Shown: positions 315-56,565 of the stretch, one piece after another
How the letters are laid out: every line of letters begins with the position of its first letter
How positions within the stretch are numbered: the stretch's first letter is position 1
Assembly: GCA_963781585.1 (NCBI GenBank)
Contig: CAWAGQ010000011.1
Span: 352,001-416,000, forward strand
Reading direction: 5' to 3'
Length of the DNA: 64,000 nucleotides
DNA from: an uncultured Gemmatimonadaceae bacterium
GTDB lineage: Bacteria > Gemmatimonadota > Gemmatimonadetes > Gemmatimonadales > Gemmatimonadaceae
Position numbers and translations under genes: made by a program
The notes under the pieces: model-generated
Database searches by the model: none
What the model saw: the letters and a program-made list of their open reading frames with translations, nothing else
What the model was told of the DNA's origin: nothing

Positions 315-1334
315 ATGAGGTCCGTCGTCGCCGGCGCGGCAATCGGCGGGCTGCTGGCGGCCGTGCCACCGGCCGGGATCCGGCCGCCCGGCGTCGGACC
401 GCTCCCGGCCGGTGGCACGGTCGCCGTCGACACGTTCTGGAGCCAGTCGTTAGGCATCCGCAAGCGCCTCGTCGTCTGGCTGCCACCGTCCTACGGCACG
501 GATCCGGCACGCCGCTATCCGGTCGCCTATTACCTCCACGGGGCGTTCGGCAACGAAACCGACTGGACCGCCCGGGCCGGGCTGGACCACACGCTCGATT
601 CCCTGGTCGCGGCCGGCCTCCCCGAAATCATCGTCGCGATGCCCGACGGCGACGACGGATGGTACACCACCTGGAACGTCCTCGGCGACAACGCCGCATG
701 TCGCCGGGCGCATGCCAGGCAGGGGAACGAGCCCGCCGACGACTACTGCGTCCCGTGGCCGCATTACGACGACTACATCGCCCACGACCTGGTGTCGTTC
801 GTGGATCGCACCTACCGCACCCGCGCCGACCGGCTCCACCGCGGGATCGCCGGACTGAGCATGGGCGGGTACGGCGCCGTCGCCCTCGCGCTCGCCTATC
901 CCGAGGTCTTCTCCGCCGCCGCGAGTCACTCCGGCGTGCTGGCGCCGCTCGCCGGCACCGTTCCGCCGGCCCGGGGCGCGCCGCGTTATGCAGCAGCCAT
1001 CGACTCGCTGCGGGCCCGTTACCAGGCGCCGCTCTGGGGCATCATGGCGCCGGCATTCGGCAACGACACCTCCGCCTGGTGGGCGCGCGATCCCGGACGA
1101 CTCGCCGCGCGCCTCCTCCGCGAGCGCCCGTCGCTCGTGCCCGCGCTCCTGATCGACTGTGGCACCGCCGACCCGTTCCTCGACCAGAATCGCCTGTTTC
1201 GTGACACCATGGCGCAACTGGGAATCCCGGTCACCTACGCGGAATGGCCGGGGGCGCACACCTGGGACTACTGGCGTCGGCACGGCGCCGAGAGCGCGGC
1301 CTGGCTGGCGCAGAAACTGGCAGCGAGCAGGTAA
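315..1334 (+). CDS. Secreted alpha/beta-hydrolase (putative esterase family)
   Basis: Signal-like N-terminus, YPVAYYLHG, GLSMGG nucleophile elbow, IDCGTAD, GAHTWDYW. Confidence 0.85.
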   Translation: MRSVVAGAAIGGLLAAVPPAGIRPPGVGPLPAGGTVAVDTFWSQSLGIRKRLVVWLPPSYGTDPARRYPVAYYLHGAFGNETDWTARAGLDHTLDSLVAAGLPEIIVAMPDGDDGWYTTWNVLGDNAACRRAHARQGNEPADDYCVPWPHYDDYIAHDLVSFVDRTYRTRADRLHRGIAGLSMGGYGAVALALAYPEVFSAAASHSGVLAPLAGTVPPARGAPRYAAAIDSLRARYQAPLWGIMAPAFGNDTSAWWARDPGRLAARLLRERPSLVPALLIDCGTADPFLDQNRLFRDTMAQLGIPVTYAEWPGAHTWDYWRRHGAESAAWLAQKLAASR

Positions 1335-1339
1335 CGGGT

Positions 1340-1508
1340 ACAGCATTCAGCTGGCAGCGATCAGCTGTCAAATGGAGTCGGCAGTGTACAGCCTTCATTT
1401 TGGGAGCTGTCAGACGAACGCAGAGTGACATGGTCTGTTCGCCGGAGTCTGCCAGCTGGCATCTGACGGCTCCGGTCGTGGGCTGCGAGCTGAGCGCTGT
1501 CCGCTGAT
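1340..1508. repeat. Degenerate heptamer array (CAGC-type then GCTG-type units)
   Basis: cagcatt cagctgg cagcgat cagctgt ... gctgagc gctgtcc gctgatt; the two halves are in opposite orientation. Confidence 0.5.
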
Positions 1509-1531
1509 TCCCCCCCCGATATTCGACCTTC

Positions 1532-2080
1532 ATGCGCGGATTCTTCCCCCGGCAGACCGGTGCGTGGAAAACCATCGAGGAGGCGACGTCGTTCCGCCGC
1601 GTCTCGCTGTCGGTGGTCGAGATGGCCGTGCTCACCGGCGTCGTGCTCCGCGTCTACCGCGCCACCGTCATCTCGTTAGGCGCCGGGCGCGGCTGGCTCT
1701 ACCTCGGCGCCACCTTCGCCGTCGCATTCGCCCTGCTGTTCGGGATGGCCACCCTCCACCTCGGCAATTTCACCGTGCGCCAGTGGCTCTGGCGCGCCCC
1801 GGTGTTCGCTGCCATCGAGGCCGCCACCGAGGCCGCGGTCAGCCTGGGTCTGATTGCCCTCGGCCGCGAGCCGCTCGGCTCCGAACGCGCCACGTTCGGC
1901 GACTGGCCGACCATGGTGCGCGATGTCTTCATCTGGCGCGTCGGCACGGTCGTGGTCTTCGCGCTCCTCCTGGCCGGCGTGGTCCAGCTGGTGCGACGCA
2001 TTCTGCTGAAACACGAACATCGCGACCACACCCTCCGCGCCGTGCACGAAATGACCGCGGAGCACAAGGCGGAGCAGTGA
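1532..2080 (+). CDS. Hypothetical integral membrane protein (about 4 TM)
   Basis: Four hydrophobic stretches; GC3-rich codon usage. Confidence 0.7.
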   Translation: MRGFFPRQTGAWKTIEEATSFRRVSLSVVEMAVLTGVVLRVYRATVISLGAGRGWLYLGATFAVAFALLFGMATLHLGNFTVRQWLWRAPVFAAIEAATEAAVSLGLIALGREPLGSERATFGDWPTMVRDVFIWRVGTVVVFALLLAGVVQLVRRILLKHEHRDHTLRAVHEMTAEHKAEQ

Positions 2081-3142: not shown

Positions 3143-3691
3143 ATGGTGTTGACCGTCTACGCCAACCGGCGGTCGCCGGCGGTCCCGAAGATCGGCGCCG
3201 GACTCGCGGCCGCCTTTTTCCGGACGGCGCGCGGGCGCCCGGTGACGCTGGTGGCCGAAGGACTGCCGCTGTCGGCGCGGCCCCGCGACGTCACCTTCCA
3301 CGCGCTCGACCGGATGGAGCCCGGTACCCTGCCGACGCTGATCGCCGACCTCCGTCGCCGCCATCACATCACGGTCGTCGCGCCGAGCGACCCGCGCACC
3401 GAGCGCGCGTTTCTCGCCCTCGAGCACGCCGACCGGGTGCTGCTGCTCAGCGACCTCAGCGTCGCCGGCGTACGCGGCACCCAACGCGTGATCCGGCTCT
3501 GCGCTTCGTTAGGTTACCCGTATGACAAGTTGCGGGTGGTGCTGTTCGGCGTCGCCGACGACCACGCGGTGTCGCCCCAGGTCGCGGCCGCGGCGTTCAA
3601 GCGCCCGGTCTACTGGCGACTTGGCGCTCTCGATGGCACCGCTTCGTCACTCGAGGGCCTGGCTCGCCGGATCCTGACCGACGAACGCTAG
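3143..3691 (+). CDS. Truncated CpaE/TadZ/MinD-like protein (C-terminal module only)
   Basis: ALEHADRVLLLSDLSVAGVRGTQRVIRLCASLGYPYDKLRVV aligns with the C-terminus of CpaE at 27784-28974; no intact Walker A. Confidence 0.65.
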   Translation: MVLTVYANRRSPAVPKIGAGLAAAFFRTARGRPVTLVAEGLPLSARPRDVTFHALDRMEPGTLPTLIADLRRRHHITVVAPSDPRTERAFLALEHADRVLLLSDLSVAGVRGTQRVIRLCASLGYPYDKLRVVLFGVADDHAVSPQVAAAAFKRPVYWRLGALDGTASSLEGLARRILTDER

Positions 3692-3735
3692 CGACCGCCG
3701 CCCTCGTCCCGCGCCGTCCCCCGCATATTCACCCC

Positions 3736-5973
3736 ATGGTGGAGTCGTCGATCCTTCCCAACGCCGTGCTGGCCGGGCGCTACGCCATCGAGCGCGAGAT
3801 CGGCCGTGGCGGCATGGCGACCGTCTACGAGGCCGAAGACCGCAAGTACGGCCGCCGCGTGGCCATCAAGGTCCTGCGCTCCGACCTCTCCGCGTCGTTA
3901 GGTAGCGAGCGGTTTCTGCGTGAGATCAACATCGCCGCCCGCCTCTCGCACCCGCACATCGTGCCGCTGATCGACTCCGGCGAAGCCGACGGAGCGCTCT
4001 ACTACGTCTCGCAGTTCGTTCCCGGCGGCTCGCTGCGCGACCGCCTGCGCCGCGAACCGCGGCTCCCGGTGAAGGAGGCGATCCGCATCGCGCAGGAAGT
4101 GGCCGATGGCCTGGACTTCGCCCACCGGAGCGGCATCGTCCACCGCGACGTGAAGCCCGAGAACATCCTGTTCCTCGACGGCCACGCGGTGATCACCGAC
4201 TTCGGCATCGCCCGCTGCAGCGACGGCAGCGACGACTCGCTCACCGCCATCGGTATGGCCGTGGGCACCCCGGAGTACATGAGCCCCGAACAGGCCAGCG
4301 GCGAACGCGACCTCCAGCCCGCGAGCGACATCTACAGCCTCGCCTGCGTGACCTTCGAGATGCTCGCCGGAGAGCCTCCGTTCGTCAGCGACGGGGCCCA
4401 CCTCACCATCGCCCGGCAGGTTACCGAAACGCCCCGCGCCGTCCGCCTGCTCCGGCCCGACACGCCCCCCGCAGTCGAGCAGGCGGTGCGCAAGGCGCTG
4501 GCCAAGGATCCCGCCCGGCGCTTCCCGCGCATCACCGACTTCACCGCCGCGCTGGCAGCGGCCGAGGAGCCACGCGCGCTGCCGCCGGCGGCGCGCACCC
4601 GCGCCGTGGCCGTCCTCCCGTTCGTGAACGCGAGCCCCGATCCCGACAACGAATACCTGAGCGACGGCATCACCGACGAGCTGATCGACGTCCTCTCCCG
4701 CGTGCGCGGGCTGCGCGTGTCGTCGCGGACGTCGGTCTTCGCGCTCAAGGGGAAACCGCAGGACGTGCGCGCCATCGGCGCCCTGCTCGGCGTCGCCGAA
4801 GTGCTGGAAGGCACCGTGCGCCGGTCAGGCAATCGGCTGCGCATCGCCGCTCAGCTCACCTCCACCGAGGACGGAAGGCTCCTCTGGTCGCAGCGCTACG
4901 ACCGCACCCTCGACGACGTCTTCGCCATCCAGGATGAGATCGCCCGCACCATCGCCAACACCCTGCGCGGCACCTCATTCGCCGATATCGCCGAGCCGCT
5001 GCCCCAGCGCTACACGCAGAACGTGAAGGCGTACGGGCTCTACCTGCGCGGGCGCTTCGCCTGGAACAAGCGGACGCAGGAGGGCATCGCCGAAGGGATC
5101 CGCTATTTCGAACAAGCCATCGCCGAAGACCCCGCCTACGCTCCCGCGTACACCGGCCTCGCCGACTCGTACGCGCTCCACGTGGACTACCGCAGCGTTC
5201 CGGTGGCCGAGGGCTTCGCCCGGGCCATGGAGTACGCGCGGAAGGCCATCGCACTGGACGACACGCTGGCCGAGGCACACGCCTCTCTGGCCTGGAGTCT
5301 GTTCATCTTCGACTGGGACTGGGACGGAGCCGATCGCGAATACCGGCGCGCCATGGAGCTCGACCCCGCCTACGCCACCGCGCATCAGTGGTACAGCTTC
5401 CTCCTCACGGCGCGCGGAGCCCACGACGAGGCACTGCTCGAGGTGCACACCGCGCTCGAGCTCGATCCGGTGTCGGTGAGCGTGCGGCGCAGCGCCGGCT
5501 GGGCGTACTACTATTCGCGGCGATTCGACCGTGCGCGCTATCACCTCGATCGCGCGCTGGCCATGAACCCCACGGCCGAGGAGACGTTTCGCGTTCTCGG
5601 CCTCACCCTGCTCCGCCTCGGGCAGCACGCCGATGCCGAACGCGTCCTGCGCGAAGGGTCGGCCCTTCCCGGAGCCGGCACCTATGACCTCGCGACCCTC
5701 GGGCACGCCCTCGGGGTCATGGGACGACGCGCCGAGGCCGAGGACCTCCTGGCCAGTCTGGAGCAGCGCGCCAGCGAGGGGTACGTGTCGCCGGTGGCGT
5801 TCGCCATCCTGCACCTCGGACTCGGCAACCTGGAACGCGCGCTGGACTATCTCGAGGCGGCCTTCGCCGAGCGACGCGGCTGGCTGGCCTACATCAACGT
5901 GAATCCGACGCTCGATCCACTGCGGGGGGAGCCGCGGTTCAAGGATCTGGTCGGGAAGATGCGGCTCAGCTGA
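3736..5973 (+). CDS. Hanks-type Ser/Thr kinase with TolB-like and TPR domains
   Basis: GRGGMATVY, VAIK, HRDVKPEN, DFG, GTPEYMSPEQ; then AVLPF..YLSDGITDELI and TPR helices. Confidence 0.95.
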   Translation: MVESSILPNAVLAGRYAIEREIGRGGMATVYEAEDRKYGRRVAIKVLRSDLSASLGSERFLREINIAARLSHPHIVPLIDSGEADGALYYVSQFVPGGSLRDRLRREPRLPVKEAIRIAQEVADGLDFAHRSGIVHRDVKPENILFLDGHAVITDFGIARCSDGSDDSLTAIGMAVGTPEYMSPEQASGERDLQPASDIYSLACVTFEMLAGEPPFVSDGAHLTIARQVTETPRAVRLLRPDTPPAVEQAVRKALAKDPARRFPRITDFTAALAAAEEPRALPPAARTRAVAVLPFVNASPDPDNEYLSDGITDELIDVLSRVRGLRVSSRTSVFALKGKPQDVRAIGALLGVAEVLEGTVRRSGNRLRIAAQLTSTEDGRLLWSQRYDRTLDDVFAIQDEIARTIANTLRGTSFADIAEPLPQRYTQNVKAYGLYLRGRFAWNKRTQEGIAEGIRYFEQAIAEDPAYAPAYTGLADSYALHVDYRSVPVAEGFARAMEYARKAIALDDTLAEAHASLAWSLFIFDWDWDGADREYRRAMELDPAYATAHQWYSFLLTARGAHDEALLEVHTALELDPVSVSVRRSAGWAYYYSRRFDRARYHLDRALAMNPTAEETFRVLGLTLLRLGQHADAERVLREGSALPGAGTYDLATLGHALGVMGRRAEAEDLLASLEQRASEGYVSPVAFAILHLGLGNLERALDYLEAAFAERRGWLAYINVNPTLDPLRGEPRFKDLVGKMRLS

Positions 5974-7115: not shown

Positions 7116-7199
7116 CCTTTGGCCTTTGGCCTTTGGCCTTTGGCCTTTGGCCTTTGGCCTTTGGCCTTTGGCCTTTGGCCTTTGGCCTTTGGCCTTTGG
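7116..7199. repeat. Perfect tandem repeat (CCTTTGG)x12
   Basis: Counted directly; ends 18 nt before the ATG at 7218; degenerate TCAGCT-type heptamers lie upstream at about 6990-7092. Confidence 0.97.
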
Positions 7200-8033: not shown

Positions 8034-9109
8034 TCGAGGCGGCCGGGCTCTGCGCCCGGATCGGTGCCTTCGCGCTCTCCGACGTGACGTTCACGGTTCC
8101 GCGGGGCAGCTACGGTGTGGTGATCGGTCCGGCCGGGTCCGGGAAGACCACGCTGCTCGAGACGATTGCGGGTATCATCCGTCCGATCGGCGGGACGCTC
8201 CGGCTCGACGGGCGCGACGCGTCCGGCGTTCCACCCGAGCAACGCAACTTGGGGCTGGTGTATCAGCACGCGTTTCTCTTCCCCCATCTCTCGGTATCGG
8301 CGAACGTCGCGTACGGCGTCACCGATCCGGCGGTGACCGCCGAGTTCATGGCCCGGTTGGAGATCGCCGACCTCGGTGGTCGCGACGTTGCATCGCTCAG
8401 CGGCGGCGAGCGCCAGCTGGTGGCGCTGGCGCGCACGCTCGCGAGGCGGCCCTCGATCCTGCTTCTCGACGAGCCGTTCGGTGCCCTCGACCCGCGTCGC
8501 CGCGCCCGCACCCGGCGCGAGGTCCGCGCCCTCCACCGCGAGCTGGGCTTCACCGTGCTTCAGGTGACGCATGACTTCACCGAAGCCGGCTTGCTGGGCG
8601 ATGTGGCGATTCTGCTCGACAAGGGTCGGGTGCTCCAGACCGGAGCACCTGACGGCGTGTTCCGCCATCCCGCATCGCCCTACATCGCGGAGTTCCTTGG
8701 CGCCGAGAACGTCCTGGCCGGCAGCGCGCGGCTTCTTGGCGATCACGCGCCCGATTGGATCGACGCCGAGCCCGCCGCCCTGGCGGAGGGCTATCATCCC
8801 GTGGAATTCCGGAGCGGCCCGTTCACCATCTACACCGTCGGTCAGGCGCCCGAGGGCCCGTGCTATGCGGTGATCCGCGCCGAAGAGGTGGTGTTGTCGC
8901 TGGCGCCACAGAATACGTCGGCGCGCAATCTCTTCCGCGGCCGGATCATCGAGATCGGCACGTTAGGCGCGTTCGCGCGGGTGACAGTCGAGGTGGAGGG
9001 CGTGCCGCTGGTGGCCGCCGTCACCACCCGCTCGGCGCAGGAGATGCATCTTGTCGAAGGTGTTGAAGTCTGGGCGACGTTCAAGGCGATGGGAGTGCAT
9101 CTCTGCTAG
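8030..9109 (+). CDS. modC: Molybdate/tungstate ABC ATP-binding protein with TOBE/Mop domain (ModC/WtpC-like)
   Basis: GPAGSGKTT, LSGGERQ, LLDEPF; C-terminal TSARNLF..T..SAQEM..FKA Mop motif. Confidence 0.85.
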   Translation: MIEAAGLCARIGAFALSDVTFTVPRGSYGVVIGPAGSGKTTLLETIAGIIRPIGGTLRLDGRDASGVPPEQRNLGLVYQHAFLFPHLSVSANVAYGVTDPAVTAEFMARLEIADLGGRDVASLSGGERQLVALARTLARRPSILLLDEPFGALDPRRRARTRREVRALHRELGFTVLQVTHDFTEAGLLGDVAILLDKGRVLQTGAPDGVFRHPASPYIAEFLGAENVLAGSARLLGDHAPDWIDAEPAALAEGYHPVEFRSGPFTIYTVGQAPEGPCYAVIRAEEVVLSLAPQNTSARNLFRGRIIEIGTLGAFARVTVEVEGVPLVAAVTTRSAQEMHLVEGVEVWATFKAMGVHLC

Positions 9110-10060: not shown

Positions 10061-11329
10061 ATGACAATGCATGGCAGAACCGCAAGACCCCACTCCACGG
10101 CGCTCGCCTCCCTGAGCGCAACAGTCCTCGCCGTGGCGTGTGCATCAGGTGGCAGCGCTCCACCGCAGAGCATCACGCGCGTTCCGATCGCCTACGAGCA
10201 GCCGCTCCCGCCCCTCGCGCCCCTCGAGGCGCACCTGCGGCTGGCCGGATCCGAGAGCACGTGGGTGGCGCAGGGCCCCGGCTTCGAGCTGCGAGCGCGA
10301 TCCAGGCCCGACATGCCGCGTCTCAACACCACCCTCCAGCAACTCGCCGAGGTCCATGGCCGCGCCTTCGGCTCCGACCCCGCTCTGGTCATCGTCACGA
10401 TTAGACGCCTCTCGCGCGAGGGGCAGACGGTGGTGCCGGCGCCGACGGTCACCTCAACAACCGAACCGGTGGTCGAGGTGACGGTCGGCCCCGCCGGCGA
10501 TCCGGTCGACGAGGCGACCCTCAGGATGGGACTGCGGGAGGCAGAAGCCCGCGGTGGAGAGGCGGACCGCTCGGGTCGCGGCGGCGCCAACCGCGGCCAG
10601 GGGCTCGGCGGCGTCAACGGGATCGGCGCTCCCGGTACCCGGCGTTCCTCCGGCGTGACGCGCCCGGCCGCGTTAGGCACCGTGGCACGCGTCGAGCGCG
10701 CGTGGCTCTCGGCGCGCGCCACGGCGCTCACGGGCACGCCCGCCACAGACGATCAGCGCGCCGGACTCGACCAGGATCCGCGCGTCCCGGCATGGGCTGA
10801 AGAGGCCATTGCGTCGCTGGCGGCGGACTCGCAGACGGTGAATTACCTGGCCGCCCGGCTCGCGCCGCAGATCGACAGTCTGTACCCGCTCGAGCGACTG
10901 TTAACCATGCGGCGACCCGCCGAACCCCGGCCGGTGATCGCGACCCAGGGCGCCGACTCGGCTGGCCGGCGCGGAGGCGCGGCCGACGGCGGCGCCGGGC
11001 GCCGGGGCGGCATGGAGGGCCGTCGCGCTGGCGGAGGGGGCGGGGGCGGGGGCGGATTCGGTTACGGGAGCTTTGGCGTGACCCTTCGCGGCGCGGCGCT
11101 CTTCGACGCGGAGGCCGAGGCCGTGGGGCAGTACCTCGCATCGCGCGAGGGCCCCCGGATCATCGGCGCGATGGTGGACAGCCAGATCATGGGCAAGCCG
11201 GCGGTGTCGGCGTTGGCCGGCGCCAGAATGCTCCCGGCCCAGCTGCCGGCGCTCGAGGCGCAGTGGCAGAAGTGGCTCGACTATCGCGCGCGCGGCACGT
11301 CAGGCGGCGGCCCCACCAGAATGCGCTGA
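10061..11329 (+). CDS. Hypothetical lipoprotein with Gly/Arg-rich segments
   Basis: Lipobox-like LAVAC; long ORF with GC3 bias; function not recognised. Confidence 0.6.
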   Translation: MTMHGRTARPHSTALASLSATVLAVACASGGSAPPQSITRVPIAYEQPLPPLAPLEAHLRLAGSESTWVAQGPGFELRARSRPDMPRLNTTLQQLAEVHGRAFGSDPALVIVTIRRLSREGQTVVPAPTVTSTTEPVVEVTVGPAGDPVDEATLRMGLREAEARGGEADRSGRGGANRGQGLGGVNGIGAPGTRRSSGVTRPAALGTVARVERAWLSARATALTGTPATDDQRAGLDQDPRVPAWAEEAIASLAADSQTVNYLAARLAPQIDSLYPLERLLTMRRPAEPRPVIATQGADSAGRRGGAADGGAGRRGGMEGRRAGGGGGGGGGFGYGSFGVTLRGAALFDAEAEAVGQYLASREGPRIIGAMVDSQIMGKPAVSALAGARMLPAQLPALEAQWQKWLDYRARGTSGGGPTRMR

Positions 11330-11622: not shown

Positions 11623-12125
11623 GGTTCCTGACGCAGCGCCGACCGCAGCGCGTGCCACGCCAGGCTCGCGCACTTGACCCGGATCGGGAAACGCGCCACC
11701 CCGGCGAACGCCCGCAGGGAACCTAACGAGGCGTCGGGTGCCGTCGGCGTCGCCGCTTCACCGCCGCGCGGCTCGCGCGCCGGTGGAGCGGCCGCCCCGG
11801 GCGCCAGCGCCGATCCCGGCTCCCGGGCGCCGCTCCCGGTGACCAGCGCGTGGAACCGTTCGAACAGCGCCTCCGCCTCGCCGCGCGTCTTCCCCTTCAC
11901 CGCCTGGGTCATCATCGACGCCGACGCCTTGGAGATGGCGCACCCTTCCCCGGTGAACCTGACGTCGCGGATCCGGTCGCCGTCCAGGTCCACGTACAGC
12001 GTGAGACGGTCGCCGCACAGCGGATTGTGCCCCTCCACGCGGCGCGCGCCAGGCAACTCGCCCCAGTTCCGCGGCGCGCGGTTGTGGTCCAGGATGACCT
12101 CGGCGTACAGCCCGTCGAGCTCCAT
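11619..12125 (-). CDS. sufU: SufU/NifU-family Fe-S assembly protein
   Basis: LYAEVILDH, GHNPLCGD, GCAISKASAS, RVKCASLAWH; Ala/Pro-rich loop insertion. Confidence 0.93.
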   Translation of the reverse strand: MELDGLYAEVILDHNRAPRNWGELPGARRVEGHNPLCGDRLTLYVDLDGDRIRDVRFTGEGCAISKASASMMTQAVKGKTRGEAEALFERFHALVTGSGAREPGSALAPGAAAPPAREPRGGEAATPTAPDASLGSLRAFAGVARFPIRVKCASLAWHALRSALRQEP

Positions 12126-12127: not shown

Positions 12128-13501
12128 TCAGGCAAAGAGCGCGCGCACGCGATGCAGCGCGCGCACCAGCGCGTCCACCTCGTGGCGCGTGTTGTACAGA
12201 TAGAACGACGCGCGGGCCGTGGCCGGAACGCCGAACCGCCGCATCAGCGGCTGGGCGCAGTGATGTCCGGCGCGGATGGCGATGCCGTCGCTGTCGAGCA
12301 CTGTCGCCACGTCGTGCGGATGGACGCCCTCCAGCACGAAGCTCAGCACGCCGGTCTTCTCCGGCGCGGTCCCGATCAGCCGGACCCCGTCCACCTCGTG
12401 CACCTGTTCGGTGGCGTAGCTGAGAAGGTCGTGTTCGTGGGCCGCAACCGCGGCGCGGTCCACGCGCTCCAGATATTCGATCGCCTGCCGGAACGCCACG
12501 ACCGACGCGATGTCGGGCGTCCCCGCTTCGAACTTCGCCGGCAGCCGGGCGTACGTGGTACGCTCGAACGTCACCGTGTCGATCATGTCGCCGCCCCCCT
12601 GCCACGGCGGAAGGCGGTCCAGCCACGTCTCCTTCCCGTAGAGCACCCCGGTGCCGGTGGGGCCCAGCATCTTGTGCGCCGAGAAGGCGAGGAAGTCGCA
12701 GTCCACGTCGCGCACGTCGACCGCGATGTGCGGGGCCGCCTGGGCCGCGTCGAGCAGCACCGGAATCCCGCGGTCGTGCGCCAGCGCCACGATCCGCCGC
12801 ACCGGGTTGATCGTGCCTAACGCGTTGGAGACCCAGGTCAGCGCCACCAGCCTGGTGCGTGGCCCCAGCAGGCGCTCGTACGCCGCCAGGTCGAGCGAGC
12901 CGTCGTCGCTCACCGGCACCGGGCGCAGCACCGCCCCGGTCCGTCCGGCCATCAATTGCCAGGGCACGATGTTCGAGTGATGCTCCATCTCCGATATCAC
13001 AATCTCGTCGCCCTCTCCCACGCCGGTCTGGCCGAACGTCGCCGCCACCAGGTTGATCGCCTCGGTGGTGTTGCGCGTGAAGACGATCTCGTGGGCATGG
13101 CGCGCGTTGACGAACCGGCGCACCGCTTCACGCGTGGCGTCGTACAGCTCGGTGGCGCGCTCACTCAGATAGTGCACGCCGCGATGGATGTTGCCGTTCT
13201 CTTCCTCGTAGAATCGTCGCACGGCGTCGATCACGACCCGCGGTTTCTGGCTGGTGGCCGCGCTGTCGAGGTAGACCAGCGGCTTGCCGCGCGGCGTCGT
13301 GGCCAGGATCGGGAAGTCGGCGCGCAGCCGTTCGACATCGAGCGCCGGGGAGACCGAAACGCCGCGCCCCGCCATGCCGGCAGTCACCGCAACCCCACCC
13401 CCGGCCGCCGGCCCGCCGGCAGTCGCGGCGGCACCGGTCATTCGCGAATCGGCGCCGCCCCCGTCCGGGGCCACTGTCTCGCTACGCGATCCCTGATCCA
13501 T
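12128..13501 (-). CDS. sufS: Cysteine desulfurase SufS (start uncertain)
   Basis: LVYLDSAATSQKP, MEHHSN, SAHKMLGP, RAGHHCAQP. Confidence 0.95.
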   Translation of the reverse strand: MDQGSRSETVAPDGGGADSRMTGAAATAGGPAAGGGVAVTAGMAGRGVSVSPALDVERLRADFPILATTPRGKPLVYLDSAATSQKPRVVIDAVRRFYEEENGNIHRGVHYLSERATELYDATREAVRRFVNARHAHEIVFTRNTTEAINLVAATFGQTGVGEGDEIVISEMEHHSNIVPWQLMAGRTGAVLRPVPVSDDGSLDLAAYERLLGPRTRLVALTWVSNALGTINPVRRIVALAHDRGIPVLLDAAQAAPHIAVDVRDVDCDFLAFSAHKMLGPTGTGVLYGKETWLDRLPPWQGGGDMIDTVTFERTTYARLPAKFEAGTPDIASVVAFRQAIEYLERVDRAAVAAHEHDLLSYATEQVHEVDGVRLIGTAPEKTGVLSFVLEGVHPHDVATVLDSDGIAIRAGHHCAQPLMRRFGVPATARASFYLYNTRHEVDALVRALHRVRALFA

Positions 13502-15797: not shown

Positions 15798-17227
<1,430 letters not shown>

Positions 17228-17231
<4 letters not shown>

Positions 17232-21085: not shown

Positions 21086-21225
<140 letters not shown>

Positions 21226-24544: not shown

Positions 24545-25087
24545 ATGCTTCTGCAATCGCCGCATGGCCCGGCCTGGGGGGCGCTGTTCACGGCGCTGCT
24601 TGTCGCAGGCTGCGTGGCAGACGTTAAGTGGCGGCGGATCCCGAATGGCCTGGTTCTGGCAATTGCCATCACCGGACTCTGCCATTCCATTACCACACGA
24701 CCGGTCTGGCAGGGTCTCGGTTCCAGTGTGGCCGGGCTTCTGTTAGGCTTTGTGATCTGGATCGTCTTTTACGTCGCGGGCGTTCTCGGCGCCGGCGACG
24801 TCAAGTTCTTTGCTGCGGCTGGCGCCTGGCTCGGCCCCGCGGCGACCTGGCGCGCAGCGCTGGTCGCCGGCGTGGCTGGTGGGGTGCTCGCCGTCTTATA
24901 TCTGGTTCGCGAACGACGGCTGGCCAGTACCGTCCGTCGCATGGCCCTTGCAACGTCGTCCCGTACGCCGGCGCTCTTCGGGGAGATGCCCGACGCCGCG
25001 GGTTCAACACGGCGACACCTTCCGTACGGGGTGGCTCTGGCACTGGGCGCGCTGACGGCGGCATGGGTGCCGCACCTTCTGGCGTAG
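24545..25087 (+). CDS. cpaA: Prepilin peptidase CpaA/TadV (A24)
   Basis: DVKWRRIPN, LGAGDVK, LPYGVAL. Confidence 0.92.
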   Translation: MLLQSPHGPAWGALFTALLVAGCVADVKWRRIPNGLVLAIAITGLCHSITTRPVWQGLGSSVAGLLLGFVIWIVFYVAGVLGAGDVKFFAAAGAWLGPAATWRAALVAGVAGGVLAVLYLVRERRLASTVRRMALATSSRTPALFGEMPDAAGSTRRHLPYGVALALGALTAAWVPHLLA

Positions 25088-25523: not shown

Positions 25524-25602
25524 CGGGGCTTCCTCGAAGTTGCCGGCCGGGCGGCGGGGCGGAACGTGTCGTTAGGCAGATCCCTCGAACCACGTGGTGC
25601 GT

Positions 25603-42460: not shown

Positions 42461-42482
42461 GGTTCGCCATGAAAGCGTAAGC

Positions 42483-43604: not shown

Positions 43605-44644
43605 GGCGTGACCCGGCGAAGGCGGGACCAGAGGAAGGGCAGTCGCTCCATGATCGGGGGAAGGGTCCCCTCGTTAGGCCTCCGGAGCAGCATGACCAAT
43701 GCCGGAAAATAGCAGAGCCACACGGTGCCGTTGCCCACGATGCGGCCCCACGAGAGGTAATCCGGCTGCGGCGTGTTGAACCCAACGTAGAAGAAGAGAA
43801 CCACCGTGGAAAGCGCGAAAATCAGGGACTCGCGCGCAGTGATGCACATGGCCGCCAGCAGCATCTGGTCGTAGAAGGTGGGTGGCTGGGGGACGATGGC
43901 GAGCGCGAGCAGCCACCGCGCCTCCGGCCGGCGCCATTTGAGCGCTGCCAGCAGGAGGAGGAATCCGAACGGGCGCGTGACAGGAGCTCGGAAGTGCGGT
44001 GCGTCGCGGAGATTCCGCAGCCAGGTGGAATGCCACCCAGGCAGGAGGACTTCGCTCACGGCGAAGAAGGTCACCGCGCCGGCAAGGAGGAAGACCAACG
44101 TCCGGTTCGTGCGGGCTGATGCACCGAGTGCGACACCGAAGTTCGGCTTGGCAAATCCGGCGAAGGCCAGCGGCGGCAGGAAGAATGCGGCGGCGTAAAG
44201 CGATGACCACTGCACCAACTCGACGGACACCATGAAGGAAACGCTGAGGAAGATGGGGAGCCGTGACCACCCATCGCGGGTGACCGCCCAGGCAAGGAGG
44301 GCGGTGGACAAGCCGGAGAAGACGGCGCGCGCGGCAAGCACGGGGAGGAGGCCCAGTGGCGCAACGAGCAGGAGCGCGGGCAGCGGATAGTAGAGCGGCC
44401 ACTTCCAGTGGAATGCCCCGTGTGGTCCTACCACCTGATACGGATCCTTGCCTTGCCACAAGGCTCCCGCGCCGGCCCACACTTGATCGAAGTCGCTGAC
44501 GAAGTCGGGATTGGCGCGCCCGTGGACGACTACGTAGACGACGGCGAGGATGCCGAGCAGCAACGCAAACGCGAGACGGAGGCGAGCATCCGGAGCCGCT
44601 TTCTCGGGATCGGGATGCGCGCGCACCCGCTCTAGGATCGGCAT
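43601..44644 (-). CDS. GT87/DUF2029-like membrane glycosyltransferase, paralogue 5
   Basis: SDFDQVWAGAGALWQGKDPY, YYPLP, VQWS, AKPNFG, PEARWL, FYDQM. Confidence 0.72.
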   Translation of the reverse strand: MPILERVRAHPDPEKAAPDARLRLAFALLLGILAVVYVVVHGRANPDFVSDFDQVWAGAGALWQGKDPYQVVGPHGAFHWKWPLYYPLPALLLVAPLGLLPVLAARAVFSGLSTALLAWAVTRDGWSRLPIFLSVSFMVSVELVQWSSLYAAAFFLPPLAFAGFAKPNFGVALGASARTNRTLVFLLAGAVTFFAVSEVLLPGWHSTWLRNLRDAPHFRAPVTRPFGFLLLLAALKWRRPEARWLLALAIVPQPPTFYDQMLLAAMCITARESLIFALSTVVLFFYVGFNTPQPDYLSWGRIVGNGTVWLCYFPALVMLLRRPNEGTLPPIMERLPFLWSRLRRVTP

Positions 44645-46431: not shown

Positions 46432-48113
46432 GTCGACGAAGGAGACATACCTGTGTCAGGGAGCTCGCCGGCGCTGACGCGTAGGTCATCAAGGGCCTGG
46501 AGAGAGCCAGAGTTAACCGAGACAAGGTTGTACGGCCCGTCGTCATCCTCAATGCGGAGCATCCATGCGTGGCGATCCGAGAAGTACCGCAGAAGTTTCG
46601 CGTCCTCCGTTGGACCCATCGCCCGCGCCCAGACGACCCTGGATCCGTCGATGTCCGCGGCGTTATAGACCCACTCCTGATCTGCATTGTGATGTGGCCC
46701 GTACTGGACAAGTACCAGTTGCTTTTCTGGGGACCCCGAGAGCCGTTCTTGGGTCGTCGCGCGCTGCCATGACCATGTCTGATGGAGTTTCGGGCGCAGG
46801 ATGGCCATGCCCACGGCGGACACCAATGCGAACAGGACAACGAACACCATTGTTAGGCGTGTGAGCGTAGCGCCGAGCGGAAATTGGCGAACGCGCCAGA
46901 CGTTGAGTCGCCGCGCGCTGAGGGCGAGCAGGAGAAAATACGCCCCCACCATCGGCGCGCCGTAGTGTAGCGTCAATATCCAGGGATTCACCAGGAACGT
47001 GGCAACAGACAGTCCCATGCTCGCGAGCGGAAGCCACGGACGGTCGCGGCGAAGGACCCACGGAACGGCGAGAACGAATGGAATGATGAAGAACGGCAGC
47101 AAGCCATGGGTCAGCGGCTGCGATCGTTGCCACAGTGATCTCACATAGTCCTGGAATGACGAGGGTTCGTGGGCGTGCCCTCTTCCTGCCAGGTAGAAGC
47201 AGCGCATGACGGGGTGACGGTATGCCGGGAGAGGGGGAGCCCTCCGTCCGACAAAATAGGAGGAGGCATCGTACTGTTGCGCGTAGAGCGTATACGGGAA
47301 CTGCGACCAAGTGCCCGTGACGGCACTATTGTACCGCGCCGTGGCGACGGTGCCCGCCAGAAGGATCGCCAGCGCCGGCGTGAGCGCCGGAAAGAGACGA
47401 CGACGGTCTTTCTTCCGCCACCTCCGGCCGACCCACCACATGAGGCTCGCGAAGATCGGAAGGGAGAAGAAGAAGCCCTCGAAGGGGCGCGTATTGGCGA
47501 GCAGCAAGAGTCCCAAACCCGCCCACATGGAGTTTGGGATATGCATGCGCTTGTCGGACTGTTGGATGCGCCGCACTCCTCCGAGCACCAGGGCTCCTGC
47601 CCCAGCGGGAACGGCACCACCCCAGTACGAGCTTGCCCAGTACACGCCGCCGGCGGGAAGATTCACAAACCACAGCGTTACGAGAATGCCTCCCCAGAGC
47701 ACCCACCGCGGGCGCAGCCAGGCTTGCAGCATCCAGGTGACCGCGGCGCACATGAACGCATAGCCGATCCAGACACCGACGATCGGGTATCCGGTAAGAA
47801 CCTGTCCGAGCGCGAGGAAGAGTGCAGACCCCGGCGGGTACTTCGACGCATACGACGGAACCTGCAACACGTGGAATGTCTCGAAGTGCTGCCACAGCGG
47901 GTGCGTCGGGTTCGTTAGGCGGCCGTGCGCGAAGGTGTCGCTCGCTAACAGGTAGCTGAACTCGTCGTGGACGGCCGGGGCGGGGGGCCATCCGAGAGCC
48001 ACCGACGCCGCGACCGCCGCCGCGAAGCCGAGTCCCCCCATGGCAAGAGGGGCCCGGTATGGCCGCTGCAGGATCCAGCGATACGCTCGCTCAGGCAGGA
48101 CATTCGGTCGCAT
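46419..48113 (-). CDS. GT-C-like multi-TM protein, DEFSY family copy B
   Basis: HDEFSYLLASDTFAHGRLTNP and all motifs of copy A; tandem paralogue. Confidence 0.7.
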   Translation of the reverse strand: MRPNVLPERAYRWILQRPYRAPLAMGGLGFAAAVAASVALGWPPAPAVHDEFSYLLASDTFAHGRLTNPTHPLWQHFETFHVLQVPSYASKYPPGSALFLALGQVLTGYPIVGVWIGYAFMCAAVTWMLQAWLRPRWVLWGGILVTLWFVNLPAGGVYWASSYWGGAVPAGAGALVLGGVRRIQQSDKRMHIPNSMWAGLGLLLLANTRPFEGFFFSLPIFASLMWWVGRRWRKKDRRRLFPALTPALAILLAGTVATARYNSAVTGTWSQFPYTLYAQQYDASSYFVGRRAPPLPAYRHPVMRCFYLAGRGHAHEPSSFQDYVRSLWQRSQPLTHGLLPFFIIPFVLAVPWVLRRDRPWLPLASMGLSVATFLVNPWILTLHYGAPMVGAYFLLLALSARRLNVWRVRQFPLGATLTRLTMVFVVLFALVSAVGMAILRPKLHQTWSWQRATTQERLSGSPEKQLVLVQYGPHHNADQEWVYNAADIDGSRVVWARAMGPTEDAKLLRYFSDRHAWMLRIEDDDGPYNLVSVNSGSLQALDDLRVSAGELPDTGMSPSSTCAR

Positions 48114-50965: not shown

Positions 50966-52041
50966 GTGACGCCGCCATGACCGCGTCGGTCGAGCCCGAG
51001 GACCCTCACAGGCCCCTCGCCATTTCCCTGCGCCTGCGTGTCGCGCTGGGCGTGGCCGGAGTGGCGGCCATTCTGGTCGTCTTCGGCGCGCTCCATTTCC
51101 CGGACTTCATCAGCGACTTCGACCAGATCTGGTTTGCGGCGCGCGCTGTCCTGCACGGACGCGACCCTTATCAGCTGATCGGACCGGGGAAGGAGTTCAA
51201 CGTCGGATTTCCGCTGTACTATCCGCTGATGGCCCCGATCGTCGCGCTGCCGTTCGGCATGCTGCCGCTCATCGCGGCGCGCGCCGCGTGGGTCTTCACC
51301 ACTTGCGGGTTGCTTGCCTTCCTGCTCACGCGCGACGGATACCGGCGCCTCCCGATTGTCATCTCGGGTGCATTCGTCTCGTGCATTCAGCTCGTGCAGT
51401 GGTCGCCGATCATGACCTGCGCGGTCCTGGTCCCGGCGCTGGGTTTCTTCGCGGCCGCCAAACCAAACATCGGTGCGGCCGCTGTGGCCGGCGTAAGGAC
51501 CCGGCGCGAGTTCGTCCTCTCCGCCGGCGGCGTGATGCTCCTGACGCTGATCGCGTTCCTGGTGCAGCCGTCATGGTTCAGCGAATGGCGCGCCGCGGTG
51601 GCCTCGGCGACGCACTTTCGATCGTTCATGATGCTCCCCGGAGGGCAGCTGCTGGCGCTCTGCGCCCTCCGCTGGCGGCGCTGGGATGCCCGGCTGCTGG
51701 CGGTGTTGGCCCTGTTCCCACAGACACCGGGCGCGAATTCGGCTTTGCTCCTCCTGCTGATCCCCCAGCGCCGGTTCGACATTCTGGTGTTCAGCCTGTT
51801 GACCTACATCCCCGTCTATGTGGGATTCTGGGCCGCCTACCGGCCGACAGTGGAGGAATACTCGCGAGTCATGGGCTGGGTGACGCTCGTCTCCGTCTAT
51901 TTCCCGATGTTGTGGTTCGTCCTGCGCCAGCCTAACGTGGGCCGCATGCCCGGCGTCGTCGAACGCGCGGTCGCCCGGTTCCCGGAGTGGATCCGTGGAT
52001 CCGCACCCGGTGGGGGAGCCGTGGCCGGAACCAGCGCCTGA
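50962..52041 (+). CDS. GT87/DUF2029-like membrane glycosyltransferase, paralogue 6
   Basis: SDFDQIWFAARAVLHGRDPY, YYPL, VQWSP, AKPNIG, PQTP. Confidence 0.72.
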   Translation: MSDAAMTASVEPEDPHRPLAISLRLRVALGVAGVAAILVVFGALHFPDFISDFDQIWFAARAVLHGRDPYQLIGPGKEFNVGFPLYYPLMAPIVALPFGMLPLIAARAAWVFTTCGLLAFLLTRDGYRRLPIVISGAFVSCIQLVQWSPIMTCAVLVPALGFFAAAKPNIGAAAVAGVRTRREFVLSAGGVMLLTLIAFLVQPSWFSEWRAAVASATHFRSFMMLPGGQLLALCALRWRRWDARLLAVLALFPQTPGANSALLLLLIPQRRFDILVFSLLTYIPVYVGFWAAYRPTVEEYSRVMGWVTLVSVYFPMLWFVLRQPNVGRMPGVVERAVARFPEWIRGSAPGGGAVAGTSA

Positions 52042-53900: not shown

Positions 53901-53934
53901 CCATTTCGCGATCGGCGAGGACGTTCGACTGACC

Positions 53935-55605
53935 ATGCAGGCGGCGCTCACCGCGGGCCGCCACCGGGGCGGTGTCATGTCAATCGGCACGCGCTCCACG
54001 GTCTGGCTGTGCCTGCTTGCCTGGCTGATTCTGATGTTGTGCGTCCAGCGATTCTCGGAGGCCGACGTCTGGTATCACCTCCGGAACGCTCAGGACTTGC
54101 TTAGCGCGCGCGCGGTTCCGCGCTTCGATCACTACACCTTCACATCAGCCGGAGCGCCGCTCGTGGACTACGAATGGCTCTCCGAACTGCCGTACTATAG
54201 CGCGTTCCGTGCCTGGGGCATGCGGGGTCTCCTGGCCGTCTACGCGGCGGTGCTCCTCCTGGTATTTGCCGGCGTGTATCACCTGGCGCGGCGCCGCGGC
54301 GCGAATTATCGGCAGGCCGCGCTCGCCACTTTCGTGGGGGTGGCGCTGGGTTCCTATTCCTTTGGCCCTCGCATGATGCACTTCGGGTGGCTCTGCCTGG
54401 TCGGCCTGCTGTTGGTGCTCGATCGGTGTGAGGAGAATCCGAAGCTGCTGTGGCTCATGCCGCCGCTGTTCGCGGCTTGGATCAATCTTCACGGATCCTG
54501 GGTGCTGGGTTTCGTGGTCCTCGGCGCGGTGCTGCTCGATGGAAGCCTGCGCGGGACCTGGGGAGCGATTACCGCCGCCGAGAGCACCGGCGCCACGCGT
54601 CCGAAACCTGTGGCGGTGGCGGCGCTCGGATCCATCGCAGCGCTGTTCGTCAACCCATACGGCGTTGGTCTCGTTCGGTATCCATTCGACCTGTTGTTCA
54701 GGCAGCAGTCCAATCTCAGCACGGTGATCGAGTGGCAGTCCGTGGACTTCCACTCCGGCTATGGCAAACTGGCTATGCTGATGATCCTGGGCGTGCTGGC
54801 GATCGTCTTGTTGCATCGCAAACCGTGGCGGCTGCGCGACGTGCTGCTTGTCGGATTCGCTCTCTGGGCCTCGCTGACGCACGCCCGTTTTCTGATCCTG
54901 GCCGGAATCCTGCTCCCGCCGATCCTCGCGTGCCGTGTGACGCTGTTGTCCGACGCCGATCGGACCCAGGAGACACCTGCGCTCAATCTCCTACTTCTCC
55001 TGGTGATGATCGTCGCGTTGATCAGGACGGTGCCATCGGAGAAGCGACTGCAGGCAACGATCGATCGCGATTTCCCACGAGCCGCCCTGGCCTTCTTGCA
55101 AGAACAGCGGCTCGAAGGGCGTTTGTTCAACGCGTACGACTTTGGCGGATTCGTCGAGTGGAACGCGCCATCGATCAGGACGTTCGCGGACGGGCGAACC
55201 GATATTTTTGTGTACAACGGTGTGCTCCACGACTACCTGAGAATCGTGCTGCTCAAGGGCTCGTTCGAAGTCCTGGATAAGTACGCAATACGGTACGTCC
55301 TTTACCCACCCGGACACCCACTCACCTATCTTCTCGATCGGAACAGGTCCTGGCATCAACTCTACGCTGACCAGACGGCGCGATTGTATGAACGCACCAT
55401 CGGTGCGCCTGCTACCAGGACCGAAGCCCCCAGCCGGGACGATCCGCGGACGGCCGCAACTTCAGGGATGGAACACGATCCAGAGCTGCAGACCCAATCC
55501 GAGCGCGGCCATTACGATGAGGATTCTGTTCAACCGGTTGCTGACAGAGTTCACTCCGCCCCGTTCGGCGCTCGCTCGTCCGATGGGTTCCGGAGGATGC
55601 CATAG
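53935..55605 (+). CDS. GT-C-like multi-TM membrane protein (D-x-W-x-HL family)
   Basis: DVWYHLR, YEWLSE, WINLHG, NPYG, IEWQS, C-terminal FNAYDFGGF..FADGR domain. Confidence 0.65.
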   Translation: MQAALTAGRHRGGVMSIGTRSTVWLCLLAWLILMLCVQRFSEADVWYHLRNAQDLLSARAVPRFDHYTFTSAGAPLVDYEWLSELPYYSAFRAWGMRGLLAVYAAVLLLVFAGVYHLARRRGANYRQAALATFVGVALGSYSFGPRMMHFGWLCLVGLLLVLDRCEENPKLLWLMPPLFAAWINLHGSWVLGFVVLGAVLLDGSLRGTWGAITAAESTGATRPKPVAVAALGSIAALFVNPYGVGLVRYPFDLLFRQQSNLSTVIEWQSVDFHSGYGKLAMLMILGVLAIVLLHRKPWRLRDVLLVGFALWASLTHARFLILAGILLPPILACRVTLLSDADRTQETPALNLLLLLVMIVALIRTVPSEKRLQATIDRDFPRAALAFLQEQRLEGRLFNAYDFGGFVEWNAPSIRTFADGRTDIFVYNGVLHDYLRIVLLKGSFEVLDKYAIRYVLYPPGHPLTYLLDRNRSWHQLYADQTARLYERTIGAPATRTEAPSRDDPRTAATSGMEHDPELQTQSERGHYDEDSVQPVADRVHSAPFGARSSDGFRRMP

Positions 55606-56565
55606 GAAGTGATTACCGAGGGCCAGCAACAGGACCGGGAGCAGGACGAGGTACACTTGCAGTCGCGCCAGCATGGAATAGCCGGCATCGAAGCTCCCGT
55701 ACGGGCCTAACGCCAGCGCGACCAACTGCAGCAGGTGCGTCAGCGCGGCCAGAACGAGGGCCTGACGCAGCGTGCGGCACAGCGCGAACAACGGCAGCAC
55801 ATCGTACAGGCTGGGAGTCTGCGGAACGAGCGAAGCCACGAGTAGTACACGGCCGTCAGCAGTGCGCCAGAGAAGCAACGCGGCCAGGAGGAGAACCCCC
55901 CCCGGCTGCAGCAGCGCGATCTCTTTGTTCGGGGCCGAGCGCGCCAGCGCGAGCCACTCTCCGTACCATGAAGGCCGCAAGACCAACGACGCCAGCATGA
56001 ACGAGGCGGCCAAGCCGATCACCAGGATGGCCTTGCGTCGATCCTGTGCGACGACTGCCAACAGCCCGACATTCGGCTTGGCGGCTACCACGAACCCAAG
56101 CGCCGGAAGCCAGAATGTCGCCAGGATCAGCGGTGCCAGCTGATTTCGGGAGATCGCCAGGTAGTACGAGGTGCTGAGCAGCATCGGCCAAAGCACGCGC
56201 CAGCGTGGGCCCACGGCGAAACCCAGTATCCCGGCCGAGACGACGCTGAACGCAATACGCGCCGCAGCCAACGGGAGAAACGAGAACGGAACGATGAGAA
56301 TGACAGCCGTGGGTGGATAGAAGAGCGGCCACGCCCACGGGAACTGTCGCCCCGGTCCCACCGCGGTGTACGGATCGGCGCCGCGAACCAGCGCCCGCGC
56401 CGCGTACCACAACTGGTCCAGATCGCTGGACATTCCCGGACCACGGACGTGTCGCAGAAGCGAGAAGGCGAGGGTGACTCCGATGACGACGAGGGTCGCC
56501 CGCCATCTGCTTCGCGACGCTCCATCAGGCTCACCAGCCGCCTGGGCGCCGGTCACGGTCTGCAA
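55462..56565 (-). CDS. GT87/DUF2029-like membrane glycosyltransferase, paralogue 7
   Basis: SDLDQLWYAARALVRGADPY, FYPP, AKPNVG, PQTPSLYD; extra C-terminal TM as in paralogue 4. Confidence 0.72.
   Translation of the reverse strand: MQTVTGAQAAGEPDGASRSRWRATLVVIGVTLAFSLLRHVRGPGMSSDLDQLWYAARALVRGADPYTAVGPGRQFPWAWPLFYPPTAVILIVPFSFLPLAAARIAFSVVSAGILGFAVGPRWRVLWPMLLSTSYYLAISRNQLAPLILATFWLPALGFVVAAKPNVGLLAVVAQDRRKAILVIGLAASFMLASLVLRPSWYGEWLALARSAPNKEIALLQPGGVLLLAALLLWRTADGRVLLVASLVPQTPSLYDVLPLFALCRTLRQALVLAALTHLLQLVALALGPYGSFDAGYSMLARLQVYLVLLPVLLLALGNHFLWHPPEPIGRASAERGGVNSVSNRLNRILIVMAALGLGLQLWIVFHP

Follow-up and report, generated by a model that had tools for sequence, protein, structure and literature searches.

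Some Gemmatimonadales actively maintain the 8-bp DNA word CGTTAGGC throughout their genomes and symmetrically on both strands. The word is described here from a 64-kb stretch of the genome of an uncultured Gemmatimonadaceae soil bacterium (G000; an assembly of 5.72 Mb in 17 contigs with 67% G+C), namely G000:C11:352001-416000 (hereafter the window), and from comparisons across that genome and its relatives. We tentatively read the word as an uptake-sequence-like self tag spread by molecular drive, a reading to which we give somewhat less than an even chance. It is put forward because the combination of features (an extreme and specific excess, symmetry between the strands, placement in genes wherever the word is tolerated, even spacing, scarcity in atypical DNA, occurrence on every replicon, maintenance at individual sites, and sharing among related genera) matches that described for uptake signal sequences (USS) and DNA uptake sequences (DUS) in passages of PMC2817400, PMC1939737, PMC2346458, and PMC3630211.

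Abundance and Codon Context

Ordinary chromosomal genes fill the window, among them a suf operon, a Tad pilus operon, genes for ABC (ATP-binding cassette) transporters, and a gene for a Ser/Thr kinase. A first-pass annotation, made from the letters of the window alone, had reported 14 exact copies of CGTTAGGC against about two expected. Every copy was found exactly where it had been placed (Table 1), and the excess is stronger than was claimed, since only about one copy is expected (0.98 ± 0.92, maximum 4, in a dinucleotide-preserving shuffle, with 0 of 100 shuffles reaching 14). The degenerate form CGTTAGGY occurs 18 times (1.82 expected), nine times on each strand as had been counted, and the three TGTTAGGC variants listed alongside are present. 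Eight of the exact copies read NCG TTA GGC, three CCT AAC G, and one CTA ACG, while two lie outside called genes, which agrees with the codon usage that had been pointed out (TTA in xLG, CCT in PN, and CTA in RLT). The same is true of a pair of paralogues that share GRLTN, where cgc cta acg at 47910 corresponds to cgg ctg acg at 46123.

The whole of G000 contains 1442 copies (724 on the plus and 718 on the minus strand), whereas Markov models of orders 0 to 3 predict 216.6, 89.4, 44.3, and 50.6 copies, respectively. At ~28 times the order-3 expectation, CGTTAGGC has the highest z score of all 8-mers in the genome, and the next-ranked words are its overlapping neighbors. Each one-off variant occurs at most 183 times, with the exception of the codon-favored CGTCAGGC. 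The information content is limited to the eight positions, with weak flank preferences against C at -1 and for G/A at +8.

Genes were called with a crude caller of our own based on open reading frames (ORFs) and codon scores (4248 genes, 83% coding), which assigned 1113 copies to genes and left 329 in spacers or on the edges of genes. Four frames occur among the coding copies, sense NCG-TTA-GGC (751) and antisense G-CCT-AAC-G (269) being far commoner than GC-CTA-ACG (63) and C-GTT-AGG-C (30). The first-pass annotation had proposed to judge its claim by a codon-preserving null and by the frequency of TTA codons outside the word, and the claim was not refuted by either. Synonymous shuffling within genes yielded 18.3 sense and 25.9 antisense copies (~44; maximum total 56 in 30 shuffles), far below the 782 and 333 observed (1115), and TTA is not equally frequent elsewhere, as 751 of the 1295 TTA codons (58%) lie inside the word. 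TTA makes up only 0.8% of Leu codons overall, yet it is the commonest Leu codon between NCG and GGC (751/1992). The share of potential places, defined as those reachable by synonymous change, that are actually filled is 32% for x-Pro-Asn-[VADEG] (269/838), 15.7% for [ASTP]-Leu-Gly (751/4789), 2.6% for [SRGC]-Leu-Thr, and 1.0% for x-Val-Arg-[LPHQR].

It is extremely unlikely that the word lacks a function and merely results from biased mutation, preferred codon pairs, or selection acting on peptides or mRNA. The gathering of 70% of the coding copies in one frame (NCG TTA GGC) speaks for such an origin, but antisense frames are used as well, the 329 non-coding and edge copies are at least as dense as the coding ones, spacer copies are conserved (see below), and the tripeptides concerned occur at near-expected frequencies in G000. 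Moreover, relatives have CTC or CTG as the Leu codon at the orthologous places, so that at least two substitutions are required per copy, and the trend of the word with G+C content at third codon positions (GC3) is opposite to the general TTA trend. Composition, codon usage, or protein sequence cannot yield the over-representation. The suggestion of the first-pass annotation that the word is maintained at the DNA rather than the protein level is thus well founded, judging from the four frames, the use of the antisense strand, the 329 non-coding or edge places, and the conservation above controls.

Orientation and Placement

The leading strand was inferred from the GC skew of 100-kb windows. 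On this basis, the word has practically the same sense fraction in leading-strand genes (287/405, 70.9%) as in lagging-strand genes (196/277, 70.8%; odds ratio 1.005). Intergenic copies split 57/57 between the strands, and 53% of all copies are on the leading strand. On contig C4 the raw strand counts switch at the GC-skew turn, but gene orientation fully accounts for this switch. The word is also found in mixed orientation inside single operons of dense relatives. The absence of polarity of the Chi or KOPS (FtsK orienting polar sequences) type, asserted earlier from the window, therefore holds, and word orientation is independent of replication direction. Because of these results, such polarity was rejected, and we give next to no credence to a polar chromosome signal, whether a Chi-type hotspot for RecBCD/AddAB or a translocase guide of the KOPS or SRS (SpoIIIE recognition sequence) type. 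Escherichia coli Chi (GCTGGTGG) and KOPS (GGGNAGGG) are likewise asymmetric, over-represented 8-bp words, and their density is similar to that of the non-palindromic CGTTAGGC (~1 per 4 kb), but both are co-oriented with replication, and CGTTAGGC is not.

Relative to transcription, the orientation of spacer copies is not biased (64/49, p = 0.19). Their density is 0.27 per kb in co-directional spacers, 0.25 in divergent ones, and 0.33 in convergent ones, similar values that are close to the 0.23 of coding sequence. Within genes, the copies are placed roughly uniformly. A promoter, terminator, or RNA-level role was rejected because of this lack of positional and orientation preference, which also argues against a translational role and for recognition of the word as duplex DNA in either orientation.

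Conservation between Diverged Homologous Contigs

The G000 assembly contains pairs of homologous contigs (C5/C8, 345 kb at 88% identity; C2/C6, 181 kb at 90%; C11/C17, 60 kb at 91%). Because the reported contamination is 7.19%, these pairs are probably two related populations binned together, the other explanation being diverged duplicate replicons. Over 610 kb of alignment, the partner has the identical word for 133 of 161 copies (82.6%) counted from one contig of each pair and for 133 of 163 counted from the other, and discordant partners are mostly one letter off (CGTTAGGT 13 times, CGTCAGGC 11 times). In the same alignments, identity is 44.8% for all 8-mers, 43.9% for same-frame 8-mers, and 41.7% for same-frame non-motif CGnnnGGC words. 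It reaches 85.7% (78/91) for copies in the NCG-TTA-GGC-type frame, and in spacers 17 of 23 copies are identical vs. 38.1% of spacer 8-mers. The word is about twice as often conserved as the controls, and substitution inside it is ~4 times slower than in comparable words.

Spacing, Gene Composition, and Replicons

The spacing of copies in G000 was compared with a null in which they were re-dealt among potential sites within ±8 kb (200 runs). Gaps shorter than 500 bp make up 4.8% of all gaps vs. 12.4 ± 0.8% in the null (minimum 10.3%; 0 of 200 simulations as low), and gaps shorter than 1 kb 14.8% vs. 23.3%. This mutual avoidance within ~1 kb fits the notion that one tag per DNA fragment suffices.

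The density of the word rises 11-fold with GC3: genes with the lowest GC3 have 0.035 copies per kb and those with the highest 0.385. Between NCG and GGC, the share of TTA among Leu codons increases in parallel, being 12% at the low end and 48% at the high end, whereas in other contexts it drops from 0.81% to 0.29%; therefore, the word marks long-resident DNA. The longest word-free stretches, of 19-39 kb, include low-G+C regions. In the complete four-replicon genome G297 (100-kb samples of each large replicon and the small plasmid whole), the chromosome has 0.60 copies per kb, the two megaplasmids have 0.62 and 0.50, and a 21-kb plasmid has 0.86.

Distribution among Relatives

Seven of 31 genomes contain at least 300 copies, namely G000 (1442), its congener G001 (915), G009 (6360), G005 (605), G015 (516), G014 (460), and G030 (345; from another family), and most of the remaining genomes have 6-60. 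In an even sample of 401 Gemmatimonadota, 18 genomes reach this number, all of them in two families of the order Gemmatimonadales: 13 of 94 in the window's own family (nine genera) and 5 of 166 in a second one (one genus), vs. 0 of 136 in families f4-f12. A single genus includes G233, G290, and G394 with 3479-4141 copies and G286 with 66. Word-rich genomes span 0.16 to 1.25 copies per kb (a 4- to 8-fold range). In a 261-kb sample of G009 (1.22 per kb), which belongs to a second genus, no other 8-mer is as frequent as the word. Its flank preferences there are just as weak as in G000 and of the same kind, its orientation is mixed, and its spacing has a coefficient of variation of 0.86, gaps shorter than 200 bp making up 9% vs. 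22% expected. Outside the phylum, none of 351 Acidobacteriota genomes contains at least 300 copies (maximum 299 in G471, about equal to the reversed control word), and five genomes from other phyla have 17-37; a spread of the word across phyla thus finds no backing in the Acidobacteriota, the one other phylum sampled. One soil-metagenome DNA run (contigs only) contains 8% of the sampled words; no RNA run was listed.

The copy in sufB of the window is shared at the same orthologous place by L028, L032, L033, L052, and L062, while most other relatives have CGCTC-type words there. In a SufB tree of 59 rows (omitting loci above L068, seven non-Gemmatimonadota loci, and loci without a recognizable SufB of at least 350 aa), the word-bearing loci form two or three groups inside one poorly resolved subtree.

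The word could instead be an in-cell signal for some other DNA transaction or marking, kept by ordinary selection on each copy, for example a non-polar loading or stop site in repair or recombination, a nucleoid-protein anchor, or a self mark for a defense system. We regard this as unlikely, though it is the main rival of the uptake-sequence-like reading. The strong site-specific conservation with unconserved flanks, the repulsion between copies within ~1 kb, and the occurrence on all replicons, the 21-kb plasmid included, are all in keeping with it, and the presence or absence within one genus (66 copies in G286 vs. ~3500-4100 in its congeners) suggests an accessory reader gene. However, nucleoid proteins and regulators usually tolerate mismatches, and the perfect word far exceeds its one-off variants (CGTCAGGC apart). 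In addition, there is no preference for promoters or terminators, the known repair and segregation signals of such size (Chi and KOPS) are polar while the word is not, and the wide range of densities among word-rich genomes is hard to square with a fixed structural role.

Coincidence with Integron attC Sites

In word-poor relatives, same-strand copies ~550 bp apart mark integron cassette arrays. The clusters in G021 and G019 have the attC architecture (an imperfect R''-L''...L'-R' palindrome of ~60-130 nt, with a hairpin), and IntI genes adjoin the arrays at G021:C80 and G019:C26. Each copy in G021:C95 and G021:C80 terminates a conserved ~95-nt attC that consists of GCCTAACA, a pair of inverted-repeat arms, and CGTTAGGC. 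When the G021 sites were chosen by the L' arm alone, which is independent of the base preceding the core, 26 of 29 ended in CGTTAGGC and 3 of 29 in CGTTAGAC. The word thus matches the R' end of the attC of Gemmatimonadales cassettes (attC/attI core site; R box, GTTRRRY type) letter for letter, in 8 of 8 positions. GTTAGGC has appeared in print as a common integron core.

An integron integrase might accordingly read the word, the solo copies being secondary (attG-like) sites or by-products of IntI binding, but this is very unlikely. An 8-of-8 match to the top word of the genome would hardly arise by chance, the arrays adjoin IntI genes, and G000 itself has an intact IntI at C7:185885-186829 (a simple scan found no cassette array beside it). 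On the other hand, 4 of 7 word-rich genomes have an IntI above the family cut-off, as do 14 of the 24 others; the densest genome, G009, has it only as frameshifted pieces, and G005 (93% complete, 605 copies) has none. Only 8 pairs among the ~1440 copies in G000 have the order and distance of an attC, and >99% are solo, without an inverse core or hairpin, and inside conserved genes, where many recombination sites would be expected to be harmful in essential genes rather than conserved. Integrase presence does not track the abundance of the word, and the solo copies are not explained by IntI. The integrase was therefore rejected as the reader of the word because of its phyletic pattern.

Another way to connect the two, which we consider improbable, is that a putative reader was recruited to the conserved attC R' end in a lineage of Gemmatimonadales: an uptake, import, or recombination step that prefers CGTTAGGC would preferentially acquire cassettes, and molecular drive would then spread the tag through the core genome and plasmids. 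If this were true, one DNA word would tie natural transformation to integron cassette traffic, each cassette carrying exactly one copy, and the near-confinement of the word to cassette arrays in word-poor relatives would be explained.

Several further observations were made on integrons and recombinases. Long cassette arrays with a very uniform ~95-nt attC occupy G021:C95:1-20000 and G021:C80:1-8000, the latter on the 3' side of its IntI gene and on the same strand. One of the eight attC-like pairs of G000 is a solitary hairpin (GCCTAACG, complementary arms, and CGTTAGGC) at C13:335129-335213, far from the integrase. Three identical copies of a gene for a 303-aa tyrosine recombinase lie inside a ~5-kb repeat of G000 (C7:172407-173237, C7:183006-183836, and C13:309021-309851), two of them near IntI, and G001 has one copy. 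Strongly one-stranded counts of CGTTAGGC were found in the otherwise word-poor Acidobacteriota G587 (168/6), G481 (73/9), G726 (65/6), and G701 (3/58), resembling the cassette-array pattern of G021.

Possible Role in DNA Uptake

In the uptake-sequence-like reading, a putative sequence-specific protein would read the word as duplex DNA, and the competence machinery would preferentially bind and import fragments that carry it. Imported alleles would replace resident ones via homologous recombination, and the uptake bias (a molecular drive, with or without selection for own-kind DNA) would write the word wherever it is tolerated, mostly at synonymous positions of [A/S/T/P]-Leu-Gly and Pro-Asn and against codon preference. 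We infer that the reader may be the uptake machinery and the force uptake bias. The first-pass annotation had offered an uptake sequence, a HIP1-type element, a methylase site, and a nucleoid-protein site without ranking them; our tests favor the uptake-sequence-like function, a methylase site or a binding-protein site being less probable.

Uptake tags allow Neisseria and Haemophilus to recognize DNA of their own kind. Like the USS of Pasteurellaceae and the DUS of Neisseriaceae, CGTTAGGC is short and not palindromic, occurs in hundreds to thousands of copies distributed over both strands, and has no polarity relative to replication. As they do, it lies inside genes in tolerated frames, is spaced more evenly than random, is rare in atypical DNA, and is common to related genera. 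One of its orientations is commoner in genes, as is also described for uptake sequences in part of PMC2346458. It differs from both in belonging to another phylum and having another sequence, in comprising 8 bp without extended flanks, in coinciding with the attC R' end of integrons, and in being present or absent within one genus.

In favor of this reading, G000 encodes the core machinery of DNA uptake, with ComEC, DprA, a PilQ-type secretin (268 bits, just below the cut-off), many type IV prepilins, and a weak ComEA-like match. A number of results weigh against the reading, and four of them (the lack of a ComP-type receptor, the near-absence of terminator pairs, the lack of dialect words in two word-poor genomes, and the missing link between competence genes and the word) specifically against a member of the DUS family proper. 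ComEC, PilQ, and pilins occur both in the word-poor G286 and in its word-rich congeners; therefore, nothing links the competence genes to the word, and they were rejected as discriminators. The ComP_DUS-type receptor (PF16732) was rejected as the reader, as the 31 genomes have no real match to it: a single match is above the cut-off, in a word-poor genome, and the match in G000 has E = 0.006. To our knowledge, no receptor is known for USS, and the comparison with ComP bears on DUS only. Inverted pairs that could form terminators, a feature of DUS, are nearly absent from G000 (two candidates, in the order GTTAGGC..GCCTAAC), and only four pairs of copies lie within 60 bp, of which one is a hairpin. 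In samples of two word-poor genomes (G088, 400 kb; G286, 345 kb), no dispersed "dialect" word replaces CGTTAGGC, which is another difference from USS and DUS. The sense share of ~70% among coding copies is explained only in part by frame opportunity. The flanks of copies shared between the contig pairs are hardly more conserved than random places (0.893 vs. 0.884, p = 0.07), and tracts of high identity between the pairs are not enriched in the word (0.20 vs. 0.22 per kb), so that maintenance is seen but no direct trace of word-centered recombination. Finally, our literature search found nothing on uptake sequences or competence in Gemmatimonadota. None of the papers searched describes the word as a genomic motif; its letters occur as primers or constructs among the matches listed.

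The abundance of the word could also come from methylation-dependent transformation, repair bias, or another methyl-dependent process, as for a methylation-linked element that a DNA methyltransferase targets, like HIP1 (highly iterated palindrome 1; GCGATCGC) of cyanobacteria, but the chance of this is small. Very-short-patch-type repair bias shifts word counts far less than 28-fold, which counts against it. HIP1 is the closest precedent for an octamer so abundant and conserved, and many methyltransferase genes are encoded in these genomes. However, the word is not a palindrome, and the one methylase family profiled, Eco57I (PF07669), was rejected as a discriminator, since 44 of 48 genomes have it whether they are rich or poor in the word. 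Parts of PMC5861425 and PMC13756078 describe HIP1 as a very highly over-represented octamer with conserved orthologous places and quasi-regular spacing, much like CGTTAGGC, that was long without a function; according to part of PMC13756078, two methylases recognize HIP1, and it has lately been put forward as an uptake signal. Unlike CGTTAGGC, which is asymmetric and restricted to scattered genera of one order, HIP1 is palindromic, a target of known methylases, and nearly phylum-wide.

Copies in the Window and Other Features

Table 1. Exact and variant copies of the word in the 64-kb window, with gene coordinates given in window positions.
Element	Position	Strand	Context
CGTTAGGC exact	448..455	+	Sense TCG TTA GGC (S-L-G), esterase-family gene 267-1334
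CGTTAGGC exact	1674..1681	+	Sense TCG TTA GGC, gene 1532-2080
Variant CGTTAGGT	3507..3514	+	Sense TCG TTA GGT, gene 3143-3691
Variant CGTTAGGT	3896..3903	+	Sense TCG TTA GGT, Ser/Thr kinase gene 3736-5973
CGTTAGGC exact	8961..8968	+	Sense ACG TTA GGC, ABC ATPase gene 8030-9109
CGTTAGGC exact	10671..10678	+	Sense GCG TTA GGC, gene 10133-11329
Variant CGTTAGGT	11721..11728	-	Sense TCG TTA GGT, NifU-like gene 11619-12125(-); exact word at the orthologous place in locus L052
CGTTAGGC exact	12815..12822	-	Sense GCG TTA GGC, sufS-like gene 12128-13501(-); CTC/CTT Leu codons in five aligned relatives
CGTTAGGC exact	16953..16960	-	Sense CCG TTA GGC, sufB 15798-17231(-)
CGTTAGGC exact	21863..21870	-	Sense GCG TTA GGC, dehydrogenase gene 21359-22468(-)
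Variant TGTTAGGC	22073..22080	-	Sense TTG TTA GGC, dehydrogenase gene 21359-22468(-)
Variant TGTTAGGC	24741..24748	+	Outside called genes
CGTTAGGC exact	25570..25577	+	Spacer between tadE-like and rcpC-like genes
CGTTAGGC exact	28773..28780	-	Antisense, CTG CCT AAC GAC (L-P-N-D), gene 27784-28974(+)
Variant CGTTAGGT	38120..38127	-	Antisense, GCA CCT AAC GTG, gene 37602-38570(+)
CGTTAGGC exact	42481..42488	-	Short spacer between genes 41447-42460 and 42483-43529
CGTTAGGC exact	43672..43679	+	Antisense, AGG CCT AAC GAG, gene 43601-44644(-)
Variant TGTTAGGC	46851..46858	+	Antisense, CGC CTA ACA, gene 46419-48113(-)
CGTTAGGC exact	47913..47920	+	Antisense, CGC CTA ACG (R-L-T), gene 46419-48113(-); paralogue at 46123 has cgg ctg acg
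CGTTAGGC exact	51930..51937	-	Antisense, CAG CCT AAC GTG, gene 50962-52041(+)
CGTTAGGC exact	55705..55712	-	Sense GCG TTA GGC, gene 55462-56565(-)

Besides the copies of the word (Table 1), the window contains on its plus strand (25098-35317) a complete Tad/Flp pilus operon (TadE, RcpC, secretin, TadZ-like ATPase, TadA, TadB, and TadC) together with a tetratricopeptide repeat (TPR) protein. A DDE transposase is located at 39086-40036. Six consecutive ORFs of 326-564 aa without a Pfam match, the GRLTN-sharing paralogues among them, occupy 40470-48113 of the minus strand, a stretch with an unusually high A-over-T skew (0.21-0.29).

Tandem arrays of GGCCAAA are located in spacers of the window at 7118-7194 (minus strand, 11 units) and 21160-21201 (plus strand, 6 units). 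G000 holds 58 such arrays of 3-17 units, 284 of its 328 AGGCCAAA words are intergenic, and GGCCAAA/AGGCCAAA ranks second among the over-represented word families of this genome. The word-poor G286 has heptamer tandem arrays of its own, (AGAAAGC)n and (CAGGGTT)n, which are the top over-represented words in its 345-kb sample (loci L158-L177; e.g., L162:1825-1962 and L163:7032-7234) and often form inverted pairs of arrays with 60-200 bp between them. Heptamer arrays of species-specific sequence may be common to the whole family.

Significance

For practical purposes, the word could serve as a sensitive marker of long-resident vs. recently acquired DNA, and of mis-binned contigs, in metagenome bins of Gemmatimonadales. 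Natural contrasts should help to find its reader, as there are congeners with ~3500-4100 vs. 66 copies, an up to 8-fold range of densities, and a complete multi-replicon word-rich genome. That the word matches the attC R' end exactly raises the possibility of a link, open to testing, between the recognition of DNA and the traffic of cassettes. As far as we know, uptake sequences are established in only two bacterial families, with HIP1 as a debated third case. If the uptake-sequence-like reading of CGTTAGGC is true, the Gemmatimonadales would provide a further, very clean case in a little-studied soil phylum, and genome-wide self tags would be a recurrent solution.

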